In this document: piece by piece, positions 9,001 through 21,000 of the stretch | Layout of the letters: each line of letters opens with the position of its first letter | Numbering within the stretch: the first letter of the stretch is position 1 | NCBI GenBank assembly: GCA_038997165.1 | Contig: JAWBAK010000002.1 | Location: forward strand, 21,542-85,541 | Origin: Candidatus Aenigmatarchaeota archaeon | GTDB taxonomy: Archaea > Aenigmatarchaeota > Aenigmatarchaeia > CG10238-14 > SpSt-28 | Direction of reading: 5' to 3' | DNA: 64,000 nt | Position numbers: made by a program

Positions 9001-12000
9001 TTGTACCTAACCAAGCATATATTTCACTTAAATTTCTGAAATTCTCTGCTTTCTCTTGAATGCTTCTAAAGTGTAAAATAAAGCTTATAAAATTCAAAAT
9101 AATAGTAATGATTGTAAAAATTGAATATGTTTCTTTACCATTTATTATTTCTTTAAATGTTTGTACAAGGTTGTTTAAACTATTTTCATAATTTTTCAAA
9201 GCGTTTTTAATTTCGTTTGATGCTAATGAATTCAAAATATACTTTGCGTGCATTAGTTCGTGAGGTAATGTTTCAACATCTTTACCATCGATCTTTACAT
9301 AATCCTTTATTATAAGAATAATTGATCCTTCTTTATATAATAGTGGGATTGTTATACCACCCAATTGTATAGAGTTATAAATTAATTCTGATATTATTAG
9401 ATTTGCTCTATAAACTTCTGTATTTTTAGTAACGTTCTCATCTAGATCAATACCTTTACTAGCAAGTTTATTTACGGCATTTTTTACTTCCTCTTTTGAA
9501 ACTCTCTCAACCAAACCTATTTTTTCTGCTTTTTCAAATAGATCTTCTATTAAATCTTTATTTTCTTTTCTTATATGGTTTGCATGTATTGTAGGTATAT
9601 TATCATTCATAAGTAATTATATTAGATTTGAAAATATATATTTTTTATTGATAACTATGAATGTTAAACATCTAAAATAAATTAAAAATCCCTCTTTATA
9701 ATTTTTTTAAAATTATATAATATTTATGGAACACGCTTCAATTAAAACTGCTATTTTTATTGGTATTGCAATTTTAATAATTTTATTTTTCATAATAATA
9801 GGTATTTACTATTTTAAAATTTTATCAACGCAAGTAGCTATTACCCCATAAAAATGCCTATAGAAATATCAACAGAATTGCTTTATATATTAATTTTTTT
9901 CTTGATAATTGTAGCAGTAATATTAACTTTTATTTTTTCTGGTTTCGATATCAATAGAATGCAAGAAAGTATTTCAAGTTTTTGGGATAGTGTAGATAGA
10001 TTTGCTAAGAAAATATTTGGAGAAAAATAATTATGGAAGTAAATTTTTTGATCCTAATAATTCTAGGTATTATAATTTTTTCAATTATTTTAATTGTAAT
10101 ATTTTCTATGATTTGGCCTTCGAAGTTTTCTACATTTTTAAAAGAAGCATGTTTATTAACAGTTGGAAAATTTTTTGCACAACCATATATATGTGAAGCT
10201 TTTAGAGTAGCAGAATGATTCCGATAAGAACTCTTATAATAATTTTTTTAATAATTATTGCAATTATATTTTTAATTTCGATTATCTTTGCATTTTTTAA
10301 GGGTGGAGGAGTAGCTCAAGTTTTTTATGAATTTTGCAAAATAACTATTGGCAATATTCCATTTATTGGAGAGGGTGTTTGCGAAACTTTAATAAAAGAG
10401 ATATAAAAAAATAATTTATGGAGCAAACGATTTGGATAATAATTCTTATAGTTATTGCAATTCTTTCGTTTATTGTAATATTGAGCATAATATCTTTAGC
10501 AAGAGAAGGTGGAATGAGAAGTTTAGGAGATTTGTTTAATTTATCTAAATTTTTGGAAATTGTTGGAATAAAGAAATGATAGAGGATGAATTATGGATAG
10601 TTTTAGGAATTATTTTATTAATAATAGTTGGAATTTTAATTTATCTAGCTATAACTAATCCAAAATTTCAAGAATTGATAAAGAATATGATATGGAATCT
10701 CAAAATTCCAAAACCTTGGAAAAAATAATATGCAAATACCAATTAAAATAGTAATTATTATAATAATTTTAATAATTTTAATTACTTTTGCAATCTTTTT
10801 TGCAACTTTTTTAAAATCTTCTATTGCTAATATTTTATCTCAAATATTTGGTTAAACTTGAACTATTGTTTCTATCATTGGAGTTAATATTAGTGAACTA
10901 AAGAGAACTGTTAATATATATAATATTAGTGATATTATCAATGTTTTCGAAAGAAAAGAAAGAAAATTATATCTTTCTAATCCACTTTCTAAACCGACAA
11001 TTAATAAACTTGAAATTATTATCATTTCAACCAAATAAATACCTAATGAAAAAGTTATAGATCCAAAAGAAATTGAACTTACTGTAGATGCAGAAATAAA
11101 TGGAATACCAGTTAAAGGTAAAGCTTCTGTTGATTCCTGAGTTGGAAGTTCTCCAATACTAAAGAATACTTTAATAATTAGAGATAATAGAATAATTACT
11201 AATGAAATTCCAGTTCCAATTATAATTGGCATTAAGAATGTTATTATAAATTTTAGATTATTTACGTTATCACTTATTAATTCTTCAATCTTTGCTTGAA
11301 GTTTAAAAAGGTTAGATAAATATTCAGAAATTATTATCATAGTATCTCCAGCAAATCTATATCCTTTTTTATAACTTTCGATTATAATTTCAAAAGAATT
11401 TTTTATAATACTTGATGGATATATTTTTATTATTTTTTCTATTGATTCTTTTAAATTTCCACTATAGGATAATATTGATAACAATTTTTCAAATAATTTT
11501 CCAATTTCAAATTTTTTATATCTTTCAATTCCTTTATTAATTGCAATCTCTAAAGGATTTCCAGCTCTTAAATAATAACCTGTTTGATACAATACTGTTG
11601 GAAATTCGCTTTCTATTTTTTCAATAATTTTTCTTTTTAATAAAATATTTCTTAATGCAAAAATTAAAATTAGTGAGATTGGAACAAACAATAAAAATAA
11701 TGATGAAATTGCAAGAAAAACTAATGTAAAATTATCTCTTAATAATTCCTCACACTCTTCTTTACTTAATGTCAAATCTTTTGGTTTTGTTTTAAATTTT
11801 GTATTTGCCCATTCTACACATTTTTCAAAATTATAATTTAGTGAAATAAAATTTGGAAGAGTTAAAGAGGAAAGAATTAATGATATTAAAATTCCAACAA
11901 AAATTAAATTAATTTTAAAGTTAGAAAATTTTATTTCTAAAGGATTTTCTATAAGAAGAAAGGAAATTGTTAATGGTCTAGAAGTTATTAAAGTTATTAT

Positions 12001-18000: not shown

Positions 18001-21000
18001 AATGGAAAAGTATATCTTGGAAAAGAAAAGAATTGTACTTTTGAACCTTTAAACATTACAGTTAAAAGAATTTTAAAAGATAGAGTTGAAGAAAAAATAG
18101 CAACCAAAAATGAAGATATAAACAAATTAATAAATTCTGTTTGTAAAGAATATATTTCTGATGGAAAAATAGACTATGAAAACTGTGCAAAAGAATTAAA
18201 TAAAAGAGAATATAATATTTGTAGTTTATATAGTGATTTAGAAATTTGTAAAATTGGAGAAGAAAAGTTAAATAAAATAATTATTCTTATTTCAGCTGAA
18301 ATTGAAAAGAGAGAAGAATATAGAAAAAAATTAATACCAACTTTTTGTTAATTACTTTATTTTACAGCCACAAAGCTTTACTAAACAATCTTTAAAAGAT
18401 CTTAAACCCAAATAATTACATATATTTTTGTAACTTGCAAAATCATCTCCATCTTTTACACCAATATCTTTATTCTTGATTTTTGATGATAAATCATCTT
18501 CTGAAATTCCAAGATCATATGGACTACTTACTTCAATTGCTAAACATTTTGTTTTATCAACTATTTCCGAACAAAATATACTTTTTATATTTTCTCTTTT
18601 CATCCAATCTAAAGGGCTACTTCCTATTCCTAGCCAAGATAAAACAAAAAGTGCTGTTACTATTAAAATTACAATTATTATTATTATTTCTAGTGTTGTT
18701 AAAACTTTCATAATAATATATTAAGTAGTTTTTAAATATTTTTTTGGGCCCGGCGGGATTTGAACCCGCGACCTACCGGTTAAGAGCCGGCCGCTCTACC
18801 TACTGAGCTACGGGCCCATAAATTATCTTAGTTTTCTTTTTTCATAGAAAATAATTTTTATTATACAATTATGTTAAATATTAAAATCTATAATATAAAA
18901 AATTTTAAATTTTATCTATGAAAGATTTAGAAAGCAAATTGTATCAAAATTCTCAATATAAAAAATTAGAAGAAAAATTAAGAAAAGAATTAGATGAAAG
19001 ATATCCTATGTTAAAAGAAAGTGAAATTAAAGAAATTCAAACTGTTTTTTCTTTTATACCCCATGCAACAGAAAAATATATTGTATTATCAAAAATTAAT
19101 ATTGCAGATATTATAAATTTTAGCTATGCTACATATCTTATAAATTACATTAATAGCTATCCAAATACATTATCATCTTTTTCTGCTCTTATTAACTTAG
19201 CTTTTATTCTATCTTTGTATACATTTTTAATTTTTTATAGAAAAAATTTAAAAATACATGAAATGATTCACTCATATAGATTAAGATATTTTCATTTTTA
19301 TCAAAAAATTAAAGGTAAAGAAAAAGATAGCTCTTTCATTTCTAACATTCGAGAGAAATTAAAAGAAAATGTAATTAATTCTGATAACAAAATTCTTTCT
19401 TTCTTTTCCAGAGAATTTTTGTTAATATTATCTATTCCATCTTTTATAAAATATTTTATAAAAAGTTTTGATAAAAAGAAATTTTATTTTTGGGAAGAAA
19501 AAATTACTGAGTATGAAAAGGAAAGAATAACTGGTAAAAAATCTTTTCTTCTTTCCAATCGAGAAAGAAAATTTTTAGAATTTTTAGAATCTTTAAGAAC
19601 AGATAGTTATATACCAATTGAAGAAAAACAAATAGATAAAATAAAAAATTCAAATTTAGATGAAAATTTAAAGAATTTAATTTTAAATGAAATAGAAGAA
19701 ATAAAAAGCAATAAAGAATTTAAATTTTTTATTGAAAATATTCCTGTTTTTATTCCAAAATACGAATTAATAGATAAACTTTATGAAGAATGGAAAAAAT
19801 CTTCTAATCTTTATCAAAAAAACTAATAAAAATTTTTCTTATAATATCTATAATTAATCCAAAAAATAATAAGTAAAAGAGAAGTTCAAAGTTAATTGTT
19901 ATTTTTATTATATCAAAATTTAAAAAATTTTTATATTCAAATTCTATTTTTCCAAAATTTAAAACAAAAACTATAAAAATTAAAATAAAAATAGAATAAA
20001 TTATAGAAAAAACTTTTGCCATTTTATTTTCTAATAAAATTGAAAGAAAAGAAGAAAACGAAATTGTTAATCCTAAAAAAAAAAAAGAAGATAAATATTT
20101 GTATTATAGGTTTCGATAATAAAGCTACAAAAATTAAGATTAAAAAATTTGCAATTGATAATTTCATAGTTTCCTAAAATTATTATTAAAAAAGGTAGTG
20201 TAAAAAACAAAAAGTTTAGTAAAAATATAAAAAAAGCTTTTACTAATTTCATATTTTTAAAAATTGAGAAAATTTTGTTTGAATAATAAATGATATTTTT
20301 AAAACATCTTCAATATTTATAACTATAAAACCTTTAAGTTTTGAATTATTAATTTCTTCAATTATTTTATTTTTTATTTCGTTAGGATCTTTATAAGTAT
20401 CTATTAATTTAGTTGCATAGTTCTTAATTTCATCTTCTAATAATGTTTTATTTAAAAAATTTATAAAAACACTTTTTTCTTTATTAGCTTCTATATCTGT
20501 TTCTAATTTAATAAAACTAATAGTTTTATTAAAAATAAATATATTGAAATCAAAAGTTAAGTTTTTAATTTTTAGAGGGCTTGGATTAAAAATTGTAATT
20601 TCTCGGATTTCTATTTCAGATTTTTGTGTTTTTTCAAAAATTTTAGAGTTAGAAATAAAAAAGTTAATTAAAGTAAAAATCGAAAGAAAAAATAATATCA
20701 AAGAAATTAAAAACAACAAAATTGAAAATATAAATAATAATTTATTAATTAACTTTATTTTCATAATAAATTTTGCATAAACTTAAATAAATACATCTAA
20801 ATACTTATTATGGAATTCGGAATAAAAATAAAGAAAAGAGACGGAAAAGTTGAAGATTTTATTATAGAAAAAATTGTTGTTAGTATTTTAAGAAGTGGTG
20901 CAGATATAAAAACTGCTAGAAAAATTGCTTATATTGTTTTAGGAAAAATACTAGAAAAAAATAAGAAAGAAATTTCAACAAAAGAGCTAACAAAAATTGT

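Follow-up and report, generated by a model that had tools for sequence, protein, structure and literature searches.

Organisation of the locus

The window considered here, which is the whole 64,000-nucleotide stretch of DNA that was analysed, comes from a tiny hot-spring symbiotic archaeon of the Aenigmatarchaeota (DPANN). Between positions 9726 and 18711 it carries a membrane platform gene, g00610, surrounded by genes for seven conserved one-helix proteins of 38-66 aa, for a membrane protein of 901 aa and for six proteins that each have an N-terminal helix (Table 1). The micro-protein genes form a tandem array at 9726-10855, where the genome-wide survey's note had counted six tiny upstream open reading frames, and a TATA-like AT-rich box is found about 26 nt ahead of the first of them. 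A single N-terminal hydrophobic helix is present in nine of the 12 open reading frames of the locus and in 61 of 670 outside six chosen loci, a contrast that is descriptive, given that the limits of the locus were drawn with the helix feature in mind and that the set of reading frames is crude. The gene order of the whole cassette is kept at genus level.

Table 1 Genes of the locus and associated genes elsewhere; positions are those of the window unless a contig (C1) is named.
Feature	Position	Strand	Remarks
Micro-protein 1, 41 aa	9726..9851	+	One hydrophobic helix; orthologues L014, L015, L016, L017, L023
Micro-protein 2, 58 aa	9854..10030	+	One helix; orthologues L014, L015, L017, L023
Micro-protein 3, 61 aa	10033..10218	+	One helix; two-Cys C-terminal tail, kept in L014, L015
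Micro-protein 4, 63 aa	10215..10406	+	One helix, two-Cys tail; orthologues L014, L015, L016
Micro-protein 5, 53 aa	10418..10579	+	One helix; BLASTP 72% to L015 10747-10908, E 3e-11
Micro-protein 6, 50 aa	10576..10728	+	Acidic N-terminus, then one helix; BLASTP 59% to L015 10604-10750; orthologues L014, L017, L023
Micro-protein 7, 41 aa	10730..10855	+	One helix; end overlaps platform gene end by 4 nt, convergent
Platform protein g00610, 664 aa	10852..12846	-	Two tandem T2SSF/TadC-like units, about nine membrane helices
901-aa protein	12882..15587	+	Divergent from platform gene across 35 bp
139-aa protein, N-terminal helix	15584..16003	+	Start overlaps 901-aa gene stop (ATGA)
131-aa protein, N-terminal helix	16000..16395	+	Lys-x-Gln N-terminus, as on canonical-locus pilin-like genes
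131-aa protein (second), N-terminal helix	16389..16784	+	
122-aa protein, N-terminal helix	16781..17149	+	Met-Lys-small residue start in 4/4 orthologues
402-aa Cys-rich protein, N-terminal helix	17143..18351	+	Identity 47% (L014), 39% (L015)
119-aa protein, best pilin candidate	18352..18711	-	
Peptidase_A24-like prepilin peptidase candidate, 268 aa	59160..59966	+	About 40 kb from the locus
Platform paralogue g00338, 688 aa	C1:333914-335980	+	
PilB/FlaI-family ATPase g00468, 742 aa	C1:465376-467604		All nucleotide-binding boxes present

The platform protein

Judged by sequence profiles, g00610 is a TadC/PilC-type membrane platform whose single chain holds two T2SSF units and which belongs to the arCOG01814 / subclade 4F type. 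The survey's statement that it has no Pfam row holds at the curated cut-off but not below it, where T2SSF matches both modules, the first at aa 123-249 (E 5.2e-5, 23.7 bits against a cut-off of 25.2) and the second faintly (E 0.05). No match to NCBIfam FlaJ was found. Profile comparison by hhalign with the six canonical T2SSF proteins of the genome reproduces the match of module 2 (probability 96.3%, E 1.7e-9) and gives one of similar strength for module 1 (96.5%, E 8.8e-10, 203 columns), which supersedes the earlier reading that only the C-terminal module reaches significance.

The canonical proteins are encoded in three loci, each with an ATPase and two single-T2SSF genes, whose presence we confirm; they are similar to the Epd pili of Methanococcus and to the Tad pili of bacteria. 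Either half of g00610 can be aligned to a complete single-domain protein of these loci and the order is kept, such that the N-half corresponds to the first gene of the pairs (250 columns, 97.0%, E 1.2e-10) and the C-half to the second (258 columns); against all six proteins the C-half gives 97.9%, E 4.2e-13 over 260 columns. The difference is that one chain stands here where two genes stand there, and the similarity is remote (E 1e-9 to 1e-13). What the survey described as fused, divergent platforms are indeed of the two-module PilC/FlaJ type, but the fusion is the ordinary build of this TadC subfamily.

An AlphaFold2 model of g00610 built from 143 sequences (pLDDT 92.5, pTM 0.90) was compared with 48,161 PDB chains, and the five best matches are all cytoplasmic domains of the T2SSF type, aligned to aa 398-527. 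The best is PilC (2whn_B, Z 12.8, rmsd 2.3, 103/103 residues), followed by 3jc8_Ca (Z 12.7), EpsF (2vma_A, Z 10.9), TcpE (4hhx_A, Z 10.8) and SpoIIIAB (6bs9_A, Z 8.9), with the next, unrelated chain at Z 6.8. This whole-model search gives no specific match for module 1, and Foldseek against the PDB again returns none at E<=0.001.

The relationship of g00610 to its paralogue g00338 stands (BLASTP 26% identity over 674 aa, E 6e-46), as does the distribution reported for the family, which occurs in all 19 genomes of the taxonomic family and in two copies in 7/7 genomes of the genus. The gene for g00338 starts a second cassette with other surface proteins, including protease-bearing ones.

Candidate fibre subunits

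What might such a platform assemble? The strongest candidate is the 119-aa protein, whose family (14 aligned sequences) has a three-residue leader of Met, Lys/Arg and a small residue, a Glu at +5, a long hydrophobic helix and six invariant Cys, and whose predicted model is a long, kinked N-terminal helix with a small head. A strict prepilin pattern occurs in only two of the 27 N-termini examined, both of them orthologues of this gene, and the window's own copy has Val at -1. Among solved structures no pilin was matched by the model (best Z 4.2), and the family does not resemble arCOG02981 or arCOG10216, the pilin families of subclade 4F. The pilin nature claimed for the small proteins is carried by a convincing prepilin signature in this one case and by an N-terminal helix and context in the others, of which the 139-aa protein has a Lys, a small residue and a conserved hydrophobic start that are kept in L014 and L015.

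The micro-proteins are of another kind, mostly with an acidic residue at the start and without the basic leader of prepilins. Micro-protein 4 looks like a paralogue of micro-protein 3, micro-protein 2 falls in no Pfam family, and micro-protein 7 has a faint, sub-threshold match to Pfam Flp1_like (E 0.013, 15.4 bits against 33.5). They could be Flp-like subunits of the fibre, though very small ones, or else accessory subunits that stay with the platform. The 901-aa protein begins at its N-terminus with a hydrophobic helix, continues as a long helical stretch rich in charge, and has towards its C-terminus a Cys-rich part that ends in a Gly/Ala/Cys-rich hydrophobic segment (aa 841-883). Family searches found no family for it; orthologues lie beside A-type platform genes in L014, L015, L016 and L017 (43%, 39%, 35% and 38% identity), and a scaffold or a large surface component are both possibilities.

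The same parts could instead form a short pseudopilus or a membrane-level assembly device, resembling a type II secretion system or the bindosome system of Sulfolobus, that exports or mounts the large neighbours (901 aa, 402 aa and the protease-bearing proteins of the paralogue locus) on the cell surface. Large Cys-rich proteins with an N-terminal helix do dominate both cassettes, just one gene has the look of a classical pilin, the micro-proteins leave no room for a head domain, and the ATPase g00468 matches the bindosome ATPase model weakly (69.8 bits against a cut-off of 1000). That match, however, is weaker than those of the genome's canonical ATPases (144-227 bits), sequence cannot tell a short fibre from a long one, and PMC4858521 treats subclade 4F, which holds the nearest relatives yet catalogued, as pilus systems, so that we regard such a device as unlikely.

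A probable motor encoded elsewhere

As the survey had claimed, the locus has no pilus ATPase of its own, and neither has the g00338 locus; the sole other T2SSE-like gene in the window (45936-47768) encodes a PIN-ATPase-KH protein. In the genome as a whole (G000) every platform except the two fused ones has an ATPase, and g00468, which the survey had noted as lacking a platform, is the only ATPase of its family in that position. It is flanked by genes for two coiled-coil proteins and two small membrane proteins, and lies on a different contig from g00610. In the sister genus g4, on the other hand, a platform-family gene lies directly downstream of the g00468 orthologue in 9/9 genomes, and the same arrangement (gap <=500 bp, same strand) is found in 46 of the 70 genomes of a phylum sample. 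Four more have a platform gene within 2.5 kb of the ATPase, and 20 have none downstream on the same contig, some of these ATPases being at contig ends. The neighbours of g00468 match those of the linked g4 ATPase in gene order, size and N-termini, compared without alignment. In genome G018 the ATPase-adjacent platform falls within the clade of g00610 (clade A, support 100/100) and is followed by the micro-protein array, the first member of which begins 4 nt past the platform gene end on the same strand, and then by a homologue of the 901-aa protein.

We consider it likely that the locus supplies one half, platform and subunits, of a single type IV pilus-like (type IV filament) machine whose motor is g00468, encoded elsewhere, with ATPase and platform in one operon in most of the phylum and split in this genus. 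The pairing with g00610 is inferred because relatives join the two genes that here lie on different contigs, and the locus would have no ATPase because the genus rearranged an operon that is still joined in most of the phylum; the cassette would have moved away from the ATPase and the platform gene would have been inverted. The paralogue g00338 probably shares the same motor.

Alternatively, both platforms could be served by at least one of the three canonical pilus ATPases, with g00468 working on something else. There is no physical link of g00468 to either platform in this genome, and Makarova et al. 2016 (PMC4858521) argue that ATPase/TadC modules and pilin sets can be combined in trans. 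Every canonical ATPase, though, already has its own TadC pair, none of nine B-type loci examined has an ATPase that resembles g00468 or any canonical one, and the operon linkage in g4 and the wider phylum counts against such sharing, which appears highly improbable. That the cassette is a decaying, non-functional remnant left after separation from its ATPase is scarcely credible: it does lie apart from the motor gene and its 119-aa copy has an unusual Val at -1, but all its genes are intact, the platform orthologues are full-length in five of the six other genomes of the genus (45-98% identity; the sixth, in G007, is cut at a contig end) with no stops inside any match, and gene order, even of the 38-66-aa reading frames, is kept across species whose platforms are 40-72% identical.

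Relation to known systems and proposed mechanism

Subclade 4F type IV pili combine the TadC arCOG01814 with the ATPase arCOG01818, the examples given including Haloterrigena turkmenica pHTUR04 (NC_013747 16292..20060) and a Nanoarchaeum equitans member (Makarova, Koonin & Albers 2016, PMC4858521). The gene for the 604-aa protein of pHTUR04 is entered in Suppl. Table S4 of that paper as arCOG01814 TadC, subclade_4F, with 9 TM, and the platform family profile aligns with its product over the full length (probability 100%, E 1.4e-42, 568 columns), although identity in this alignment is only about 17% and tblastn finds nothing. The entries and descriptions in PMC4858521 also share with the present system a one-chain TadC of 570-650 aa that has about nine membrane helices, a long ATPase that is encoded immediately upstream of the platform and carries an additional, variable N-terminal region, and coiled-coil intracellular partner proteins. 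By bit score g00468 is closer to the 4F-linked ATPase of pHTUR04 (212 bits, E 8e-55) than to the three others of its own genome (115-127 bits). What differs is that in this genus ATPase and platform are unlinked, with a second platform copy also lacking an ATPase, and that seven micro-proteins, in a conserved array, and the 901-aa protein are present.

The survey's two ATPase-less, filament-like loci are borne out by profiles, the fold of module 2 and the gene order of relatives; they are unannotated, but full-length homology to the arCOG01814 TadC of subclade 4F means that they are no new kind. The machine is of a kind already catalogued, and the split version with its own subunit set is undescribed. 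A comparable setting is offered by the "dark matter islands" with divergent type IV pili that are described from DPANN archaea (Makarova, Wolf & Koonin 2019, PMC6393860, Figure 2A), in which pilus components lie among unannotated signal-peptide proteins that the authors read as diverse pilins. The examples shown there keep a recognisable ATPase and TadC, whereas the present island lacks an ATPase and even its platform is below curated family cut-offs. With the archaellum (FlaI/FlaJ, or ArlI/ArlJ) the system shares the gene order of ATPase and then two-domain platform, and "FlaI, FlaJ, FlaG" are mentioned for most Aenigmarchaeota genomes in PMC8407114. It differs from an archaellum in the 0 archaellin matches (PF01917) in this 94.5%-complete genome and in the score of g00468 with the FlaI model, 153 bits, far below the equivalog cut-off of 550 and the 286-401 bits of the canonical-locus ATPases.

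The cassette would belong to a DPANN form of an archaeal pilus system that is already known, with g00468 as its motor in trans, and would probably serve host contact or adhesion. The analysis shows homology, the fold of module 2, linkage in relatives and one prepilin-like N-terminus, whereas binding, processing and fibre formation are drawn by analogy with studied type IV pili. On that analogy the hexameric ATPase would dock on the platform at its two helical domains in the cytoplasm, and ATP-driven movements of the platform would pull subunits from the membrane by their N-terminal helices for addition at the base of a fibre. Before this step the 119-aa protein, perhaps together with the 122-, 131- and 139-aa proteins, might be trimmed by the A24 peptidase candidate, the only one found in the genome, which scores below the Pfam threshold (E 3e-4, 21.6 bits against 26.5) and in whose translation both Asp-containing motifs are visible.

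The gene cassette at window 9726-18711 belongs to an archaeal type IV pilus system of a kind already catalogued, the subclade 4F type, here in a DPANN version that in this genus is split and accompanied by a second platform cassette. The genome-wide survey's note, which had claimed two cryptic type IV filament loci with fused PilC/FlaJ-like platform proteins, described a real feature, and its reading was right in substance. What is new is the tie between an orphan ATPase (g00468) and a displaced platform, the significance now reached by the first module of the platform protein (g00610), and a concrete set of candidate subunits.

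Features of the cassette, its proposed motor and associated genes (window positions unless a contig is named)
Feature	Position	Strand	Description
Micro-protein array	9726-10855	+	seven tandem ORFs of 41, 58, 61, 63, 53, 50 and 41 codons; one hydrophobic helix each
Platform g00610	10852-12846	-	664-aa ORF
Intergenic gap	12847-12881		35 AT-rich bp; the start codons of the platform gene and the 901-aa gene flank it and diverge
Five overlapping genes			139, 131, 131, 122 and 402 aa; downstream of the 901-aa gene; N-terminal helix, conserved in genus
First 131-aa gene	16000-16395		one of the five
119-aa gene		opposite to the five overlapping genes	N-terminal helix, conserved in genus
tRNA gene	18745-18817	-	the 119-aa pilin candidate starts 34 bp away
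Stand-alone pilin-type gene	3440-3904 (C2:24981-25445)	+	154 aa
Second stand-alone pilin-type gene	32536-33933 (C2:54077-55474)	+	465 aa
T2SSE-like gene	45936-47768	-	610 aa
Candidate A24-type prepilin peptidase	59160-59966		E 3e-4, below cut-off; both Asp motifs
Terminal gene pair of C2	61095-62686 and C2:1306-3014		157 aa and ~380-419 aa
Paralogue g00338	C1:333914-335980		688-aa ORF
ATPase g00468	C1:465376-467604		742 aa; FlaI/TadA-type core
Four genes divergent from g00468	C1:467634-469826 (L010:3634-5827)		128 aa, 236 aa and two of ~180 aa
Run of nine consecutive genes	C1:491938-496817		single N-terminal hydrophobic helix each
Intein-bearing ATPase orthologue	G006:C7:30050-33826 (L049:191-4330)		in genome G006

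The platform protein

The platform protein g00610 and g00338 are indeed paralogues, with an identity of 26% across 674 residues (E 6e-46). The survey's statement that neither has a Pfam or NCBIfam row holds in so far as both fall below the curated cut-offs, but the Pfam T2SSF model (PF00482) does match module 1 of g00610 (aa 123-249; E 5.2e-5, with 23.7 bits where the cut-off is 25.2). The same model matches module 2 faintly (E 0.05) and reaches E<=0.1 in 9 of 16 members of the platform family.

For a half-by-half comparison, 22 full-length family members were aligned and cut at g00610 residues 1-345 and 365-664, and each half was compared, profile against profile, with the six canonical T2SSF proteins of G000, the genome studied here. 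The N-half matches these with a probability of 96.5% and E 8.8e-10 over 203 columns, and the C-half with 97.9% and E 4.2e-13 over 260 columns, which represent the entire canonical protein, membrane helices included; a separate hhalign comparison of module 2 gave 96.3% and E 1.7e-9. The earlier caveat that only the C-terminal module reaches significance is thereby lifted. Among the canonical gene pairs, the N-half corresponds to the first gene (97.0%, E 1.2e-10, 250 columns) and matches the second weakly (40%), while the C-half aligns with the second gene over 258 columns, such that the g00610 chain is colinear with the canonical gene pair. Compared directly with one another the two halves match weakly (E 1e-3, probability 22%), and an internal duplication is therefore supported via the common T2SSF match and not directly. 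Judged by profile similarity, both halves of g00610 are T2SSF units, and the sequence similarity places the protein in the T2SSF superfamily (PilC/GspF/TadB/TadC/FlaJ). A PDB sequence-profile search with the platform family returned a chance RNA polymerase (E 0.25) as its sole match.

The AlphaFold2 model of g00610, built from a 143-sequence alignment (pLDDT 92.5, pTM 0.90), consists of helices throughout, some nine of them long and hydrophobic, and has two helical bundles at aa ~106-228 and ~405-530, and hydropathy together with helix counting suggests that both bundles would lie on one side, the cytoplasmic. With the whole 664-aa model, Foldseek against the PDB again gave 0 matches at E<=0.001, and its list includes the EpsF cytoplasmic domain 2vmb_B (probability 1.00, TM 0.75 on the target). 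In an exhaustive PDB search with VIA-align the top five matches are T2SSF-type cytoplasmic domains, all placed on aa 398-527: PilC 2whn_B (Z 12.8, rmsd 2.3, 103/103 residues), the PilC chain of 3jc8 (Z 12.7), EpsF 2vma_A (Z 10.9), TcpE 4hhx_A (Z 10.8) and SpoIIIAB 6bs9_A (Z 8.9). The sixth match is unrelated (Z 6.8). The predicted fold of module 2 (aa 398-527) is that of the PilC/EpsF cytoplasmic domain, and module 1 (aa 109-221) drew only unspecific helical matches in the whole-model search.

The probable motor ATPase and its displaced platform

Which ATPase might drive this platform? The description of g00468 as the one assembly ATPase of G000 that lacks a platform stands, as does that of the three canonical loci, in each of which an ATPase is followed by two single-domain T2SSF genes. 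The nucleotide-binding boxes (Walker A and B, Asp and His boxes) can be made out in the sequence of g00468. No T2SSE ATPase adjoins the platform in G000, where the ATPase lies on C1 and the platform on C2. The sole other T2SSE-like gene in the window, of 610 aa, was considered as the missing motor and rejected, since it encodes a PIN + PilT-like ATPase + KH protein; the archaea-specific PIN-ATPase-KH family is described, in a passage of Makarova et al. 2016 (PMC4858521), as never occurring in secretion contexts.

It is in the relatives that the ATPase and platform are found together. In all nine genomes of g4, a sister genus of the same family, a platform-family gene comes immediately after a full-length orthologue of g00468 (identity 51-55%), both on one strand, and the two are separate in g1, the genus of G000 (7 genomes), as well as in the genera g2 (1) and g3 (2). 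Across a phylum sample of 71 genomes with a completeness of at least 85%, the g00468-type ATPase is present in 70 and is single-copy there, the genomes with two ATPase match rows having one gene split by an insertion. A platform-family gene follows the ATPase on the same strand at <=500 bp in 46 of these 70 genomes; 4 others have one within 2.5 kb, and in 20 no platform lies downstream on the same contig, some of these ATPases being at contig ends. In genome G018 the ATPase-adjacent platform is of g00610's own clade and is followed by six tiny ORFs and a homologue of the 901-aa protein, with one strand used throughout. In genome G004 the ATPase and the platform parts are on one contig, 137 kb apart, and an assembly artefact can therefore not account for the split. 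The gene order in relatives indicates an ancestral unit of ATPase, then platform, then subunits. In genus g1 the cassette of platform and subunits was relocated, with its platform gene turned round.

Beside g00468 are encoded 128-aa and 236-aa coiled-coil proteins, two ~180-aa membrane proteins and a 256-aa protein, the last of which presumably resembles diphthine synthase. For the four genes that diverge from g00468 no family was recognised. Compared without alignment, the neighbours of g00468 match the genes divergent from the linked g4 ATPase in order, size and N-termini. In 8 of the 70 sampled genomes (G006, G049, G065, G082, G039, G078, G033 and G051) the orthologue carries a large insertion near residue 484 or residue 535, which lengthens the ORFs to 1249-1783 aa; the one in G006 proved to be an intein that carries a LAGLIDADG endonuclease (Intein_splicing 105 bits, LAGLIDADG_3 80 bits).

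Platform clades and distribution

All 19 genomes of the taxonomic family contain the platform family, and the seven genomes of the genus have two copies each, exactly as the survey had counted. In a maximum-likelihood tree of 26 platform proteins from the taxonomic family, clade B (the g00338 type; nine rows, from all four genera) stands apart from the rest with a support of 100/100, and the remaining group comprises clade A (the g00610 type, from g1 together with genomes G017 and G018), clade C (from g2 and g4, with full-length rows of 628-631 aa) and a pair from g3. The slot behind the ATPase is held by both A-type and C-type platforms, and in nine fetched B-type loci there was no protein similar to g00468 or to the canonical ATPases. 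Within the 70-genome sample there is one platform gene in 52 genomes, two in 17 and three in 1. The simplest reading is a single motor, with the platform cassette doubled in some lineages.

Of 301 genomes sampled from the phylum, 293 contain a match to the platform-family profile (98 of 98 among the high-quality ones), which, alongside the 70/71 for the ATPase, makes the pair nearly universal in the phylum. In a representative library of 1.84 billion proteins the profile matches 1,491 proteins at E<=0.001, of which 601 reach E<=1e-30. When 29 representatives were scanned with Pfam T2SSF, 3 scored above the cut-off, 7 more below it and 19 gave nothing. As the ATPase and platform mostly escape curated family models, they are undercounted by genome surveys.

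Relation to catalogued systems

A tblastn search of plasmids with g00468 found the ATPase of Haloterrigena turkmenica pHTUR04 (34% over 410 aa, 212 bits, E 8e-55), and the other ATPases of G000 score 115-127 bits against g00468; by these pairwise scores, g00468 appears nearer to the 4F-linked plasmid ATPase than to those of its own genome. The gene after the pHTUR04 ATPase encodes a 604-aa 'secretion system protein', likewise without a Pfam match, to which the platform profile aligns at full length (probability 100%, E 1.4e-42, 568 columns). With g00610 as the query, tblastn against plasmids gave no match, the haloarchaeal TadC being reached by profile only. In Table S4 of PMC4858521 the 604-aa gene is arCOG01814, 'Pilus assembly protein TadC', subclade_4F, with 9 TM, and it is listed with an ATPase of arCOG01818 ('non_specific') and the pilins arCOG10216 and arCOG02981. 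Homology of the platform to arCOG01814 was established with one member of that family compared, the other TadC-like proteins of G000 reaching 1e-9 to 1e-13 only.

The same work includes a Nanoarchaeum equitans member in arCOG01814, and describes the 4F ATPases as carrying an additional, variable domain at the N-terminus and as having an intracellular partner of coiled-coil type (PMC4858521, section 12). The cognate pilins of the nanoarchaeal 4F members were left unidentified by Makarova et al. 2016 (PMC4858521). The 119-aa family of the cassette shows no similarity to the subclade 4F pilins arCOG02981 and arCOG10216, with probabilities of 1.7% and 0.1% when compared with the pair from pHTUR04. 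Makarova, Wolf & Koonin 2019 (PMC6393860) treat, among other matters, DPANN islands made up of diverged pilus genes, and the full-text literature searches made here found no paper on the split arrangement or its subunit set.

Homologues of FlaG, FlaI and FlaJ are, according to a statement in PMC8407114, found in most Aenigmarchaeota genomes. An archaellum is rejected here: PF01917 has 0 matches in G000, which is 94.5% complete, with positive controls in four archaea, and g00468 scores 152.8 bits against a cut-off of 550 for the FlaI model. The system is instead read as the subclade 4F type of pilus.

Candidate subunits

The small proteins of the cassette had been proposed as pilins from their N-terminal hydrophobic helices. 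This is borne out by a clear prepilin signature in the 119-aa family only, the other families having an N-terminal helix. In 14 aligned sequences, the leader of the 119-aa family is three residues long, the second being Lys/Arg; Glu stands at +5, the hydrophobic helix spans ~20 residues and six Cys are invariant. The N-terminus is that of a type IV pilin or class III signal peptide protein. The -1 residue is variable and mostly small, being Val in the window's own copy. A strict prepilin pattern fits 2 of 27 N-termini and none of 23 rows among the other six N-terminal-helix families and the micro-proteins; Lys-x-Gln type N-termini are found on pilin-like genes of the canonical loci and also on the first 131-aa gene. 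The model of the 119-aa protein (pLDDT 82.8) has a long kinked N-terminal helix (6-26, 33-54) and a small alpha/beta head, and its best PDB match has Z 4.2 with no pilin in the top 50, a result that does not show the fold to differ. The sole candidate prepilin peptidase of the A24 type that was found lies within the window.

The 901-aa protein is charged and helical in its middle part, is hydrophobic in segments at each end, and concentrates 11 of its 15 Cys in the final 175 residues; its matches in Pfam and NCBIfam did not rise above noise, and the ESM Atlas held no usable match.

Each of the five other A-type loci that were examined has the micro-protein array beside its platform gene; the platforms there have 39-72% identity to g00610 and the arrays consist of seven ORFs (L014, L015 and L023), six (L017) or four (L016). 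G018, like four of the five C-type loci whose small ORFs were listed, has an ORF of ~40 codons that abuts or overlaps the end of the platform gene in the same direction. Most of the micro-proteins are acidic at the start and lack a basic leader, with paired Cys in the tails of the third and fourth. Pfam gave nothing significant on the seven and five of their relatives, the last ORF having a sub-threshold Flp1_like match (E 0.013).

It is conceivable, albeit improbable, that the phylum-wide single-copy motor ATPase, which inteins have invaded in some lineages, acts in trans on two diverged platform cassettes and that the fibre of the g00610 cassette is made largely of leaderless micro-pilins of 38-66 residues, which would start at the would-be mature N-terminus and so bypass the prepilin peptidase. 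If true, leaderless micro-pilins would be type IV filament subunits reduced to a minimum, a form so far undescribed. Aenigmatarchaeota and other DPANN archaea live host-attached, and their contact structures are mostly unknown. A subclade whose DPANN pilins escaped identification by Makarova et al. (2016) now has named candidate subunits, and the ATPase-platform link and the subunit set provide testable targets for proteomics, tomography and cleavage assays. Knowledge of how type IV filaments work is unchanged by the result.

Genomic setting

The G000 assembly comprises 651,930 bases in four contigs, with ~24% G+C, and the DNA runs that contain the window stretch are hot-spring metagenomes; among the 17 runs listed there is no RNA run that contains it. 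Contig C1 carries archaeal RNA polymerase subunits N and K, and the closest proteins in the databases bear the label Candidatus Aenigmatarchaeota. Within the cassette, the narrow gap between the platform gene and the 901-aa gene means that the promoters of the two must share or overlap it, and a tRNA gene marks the cassette edge.

Outside the cassette, two stand-alone genes of the window have archaeal-pilin-type N-termini and adjoin neither a platform nor an ATPase. The run of nine genes on C1, one of which has an N-terminus of the archaeal-pilin type, likewise has no platform or ATPase gene nearby and may be a further pilin-only island. Finally, the two ends of C2 carry the same gene pair in opposite orientation with near-identical N-termini, which suggests a long inverted duplication or an assembly repeat.
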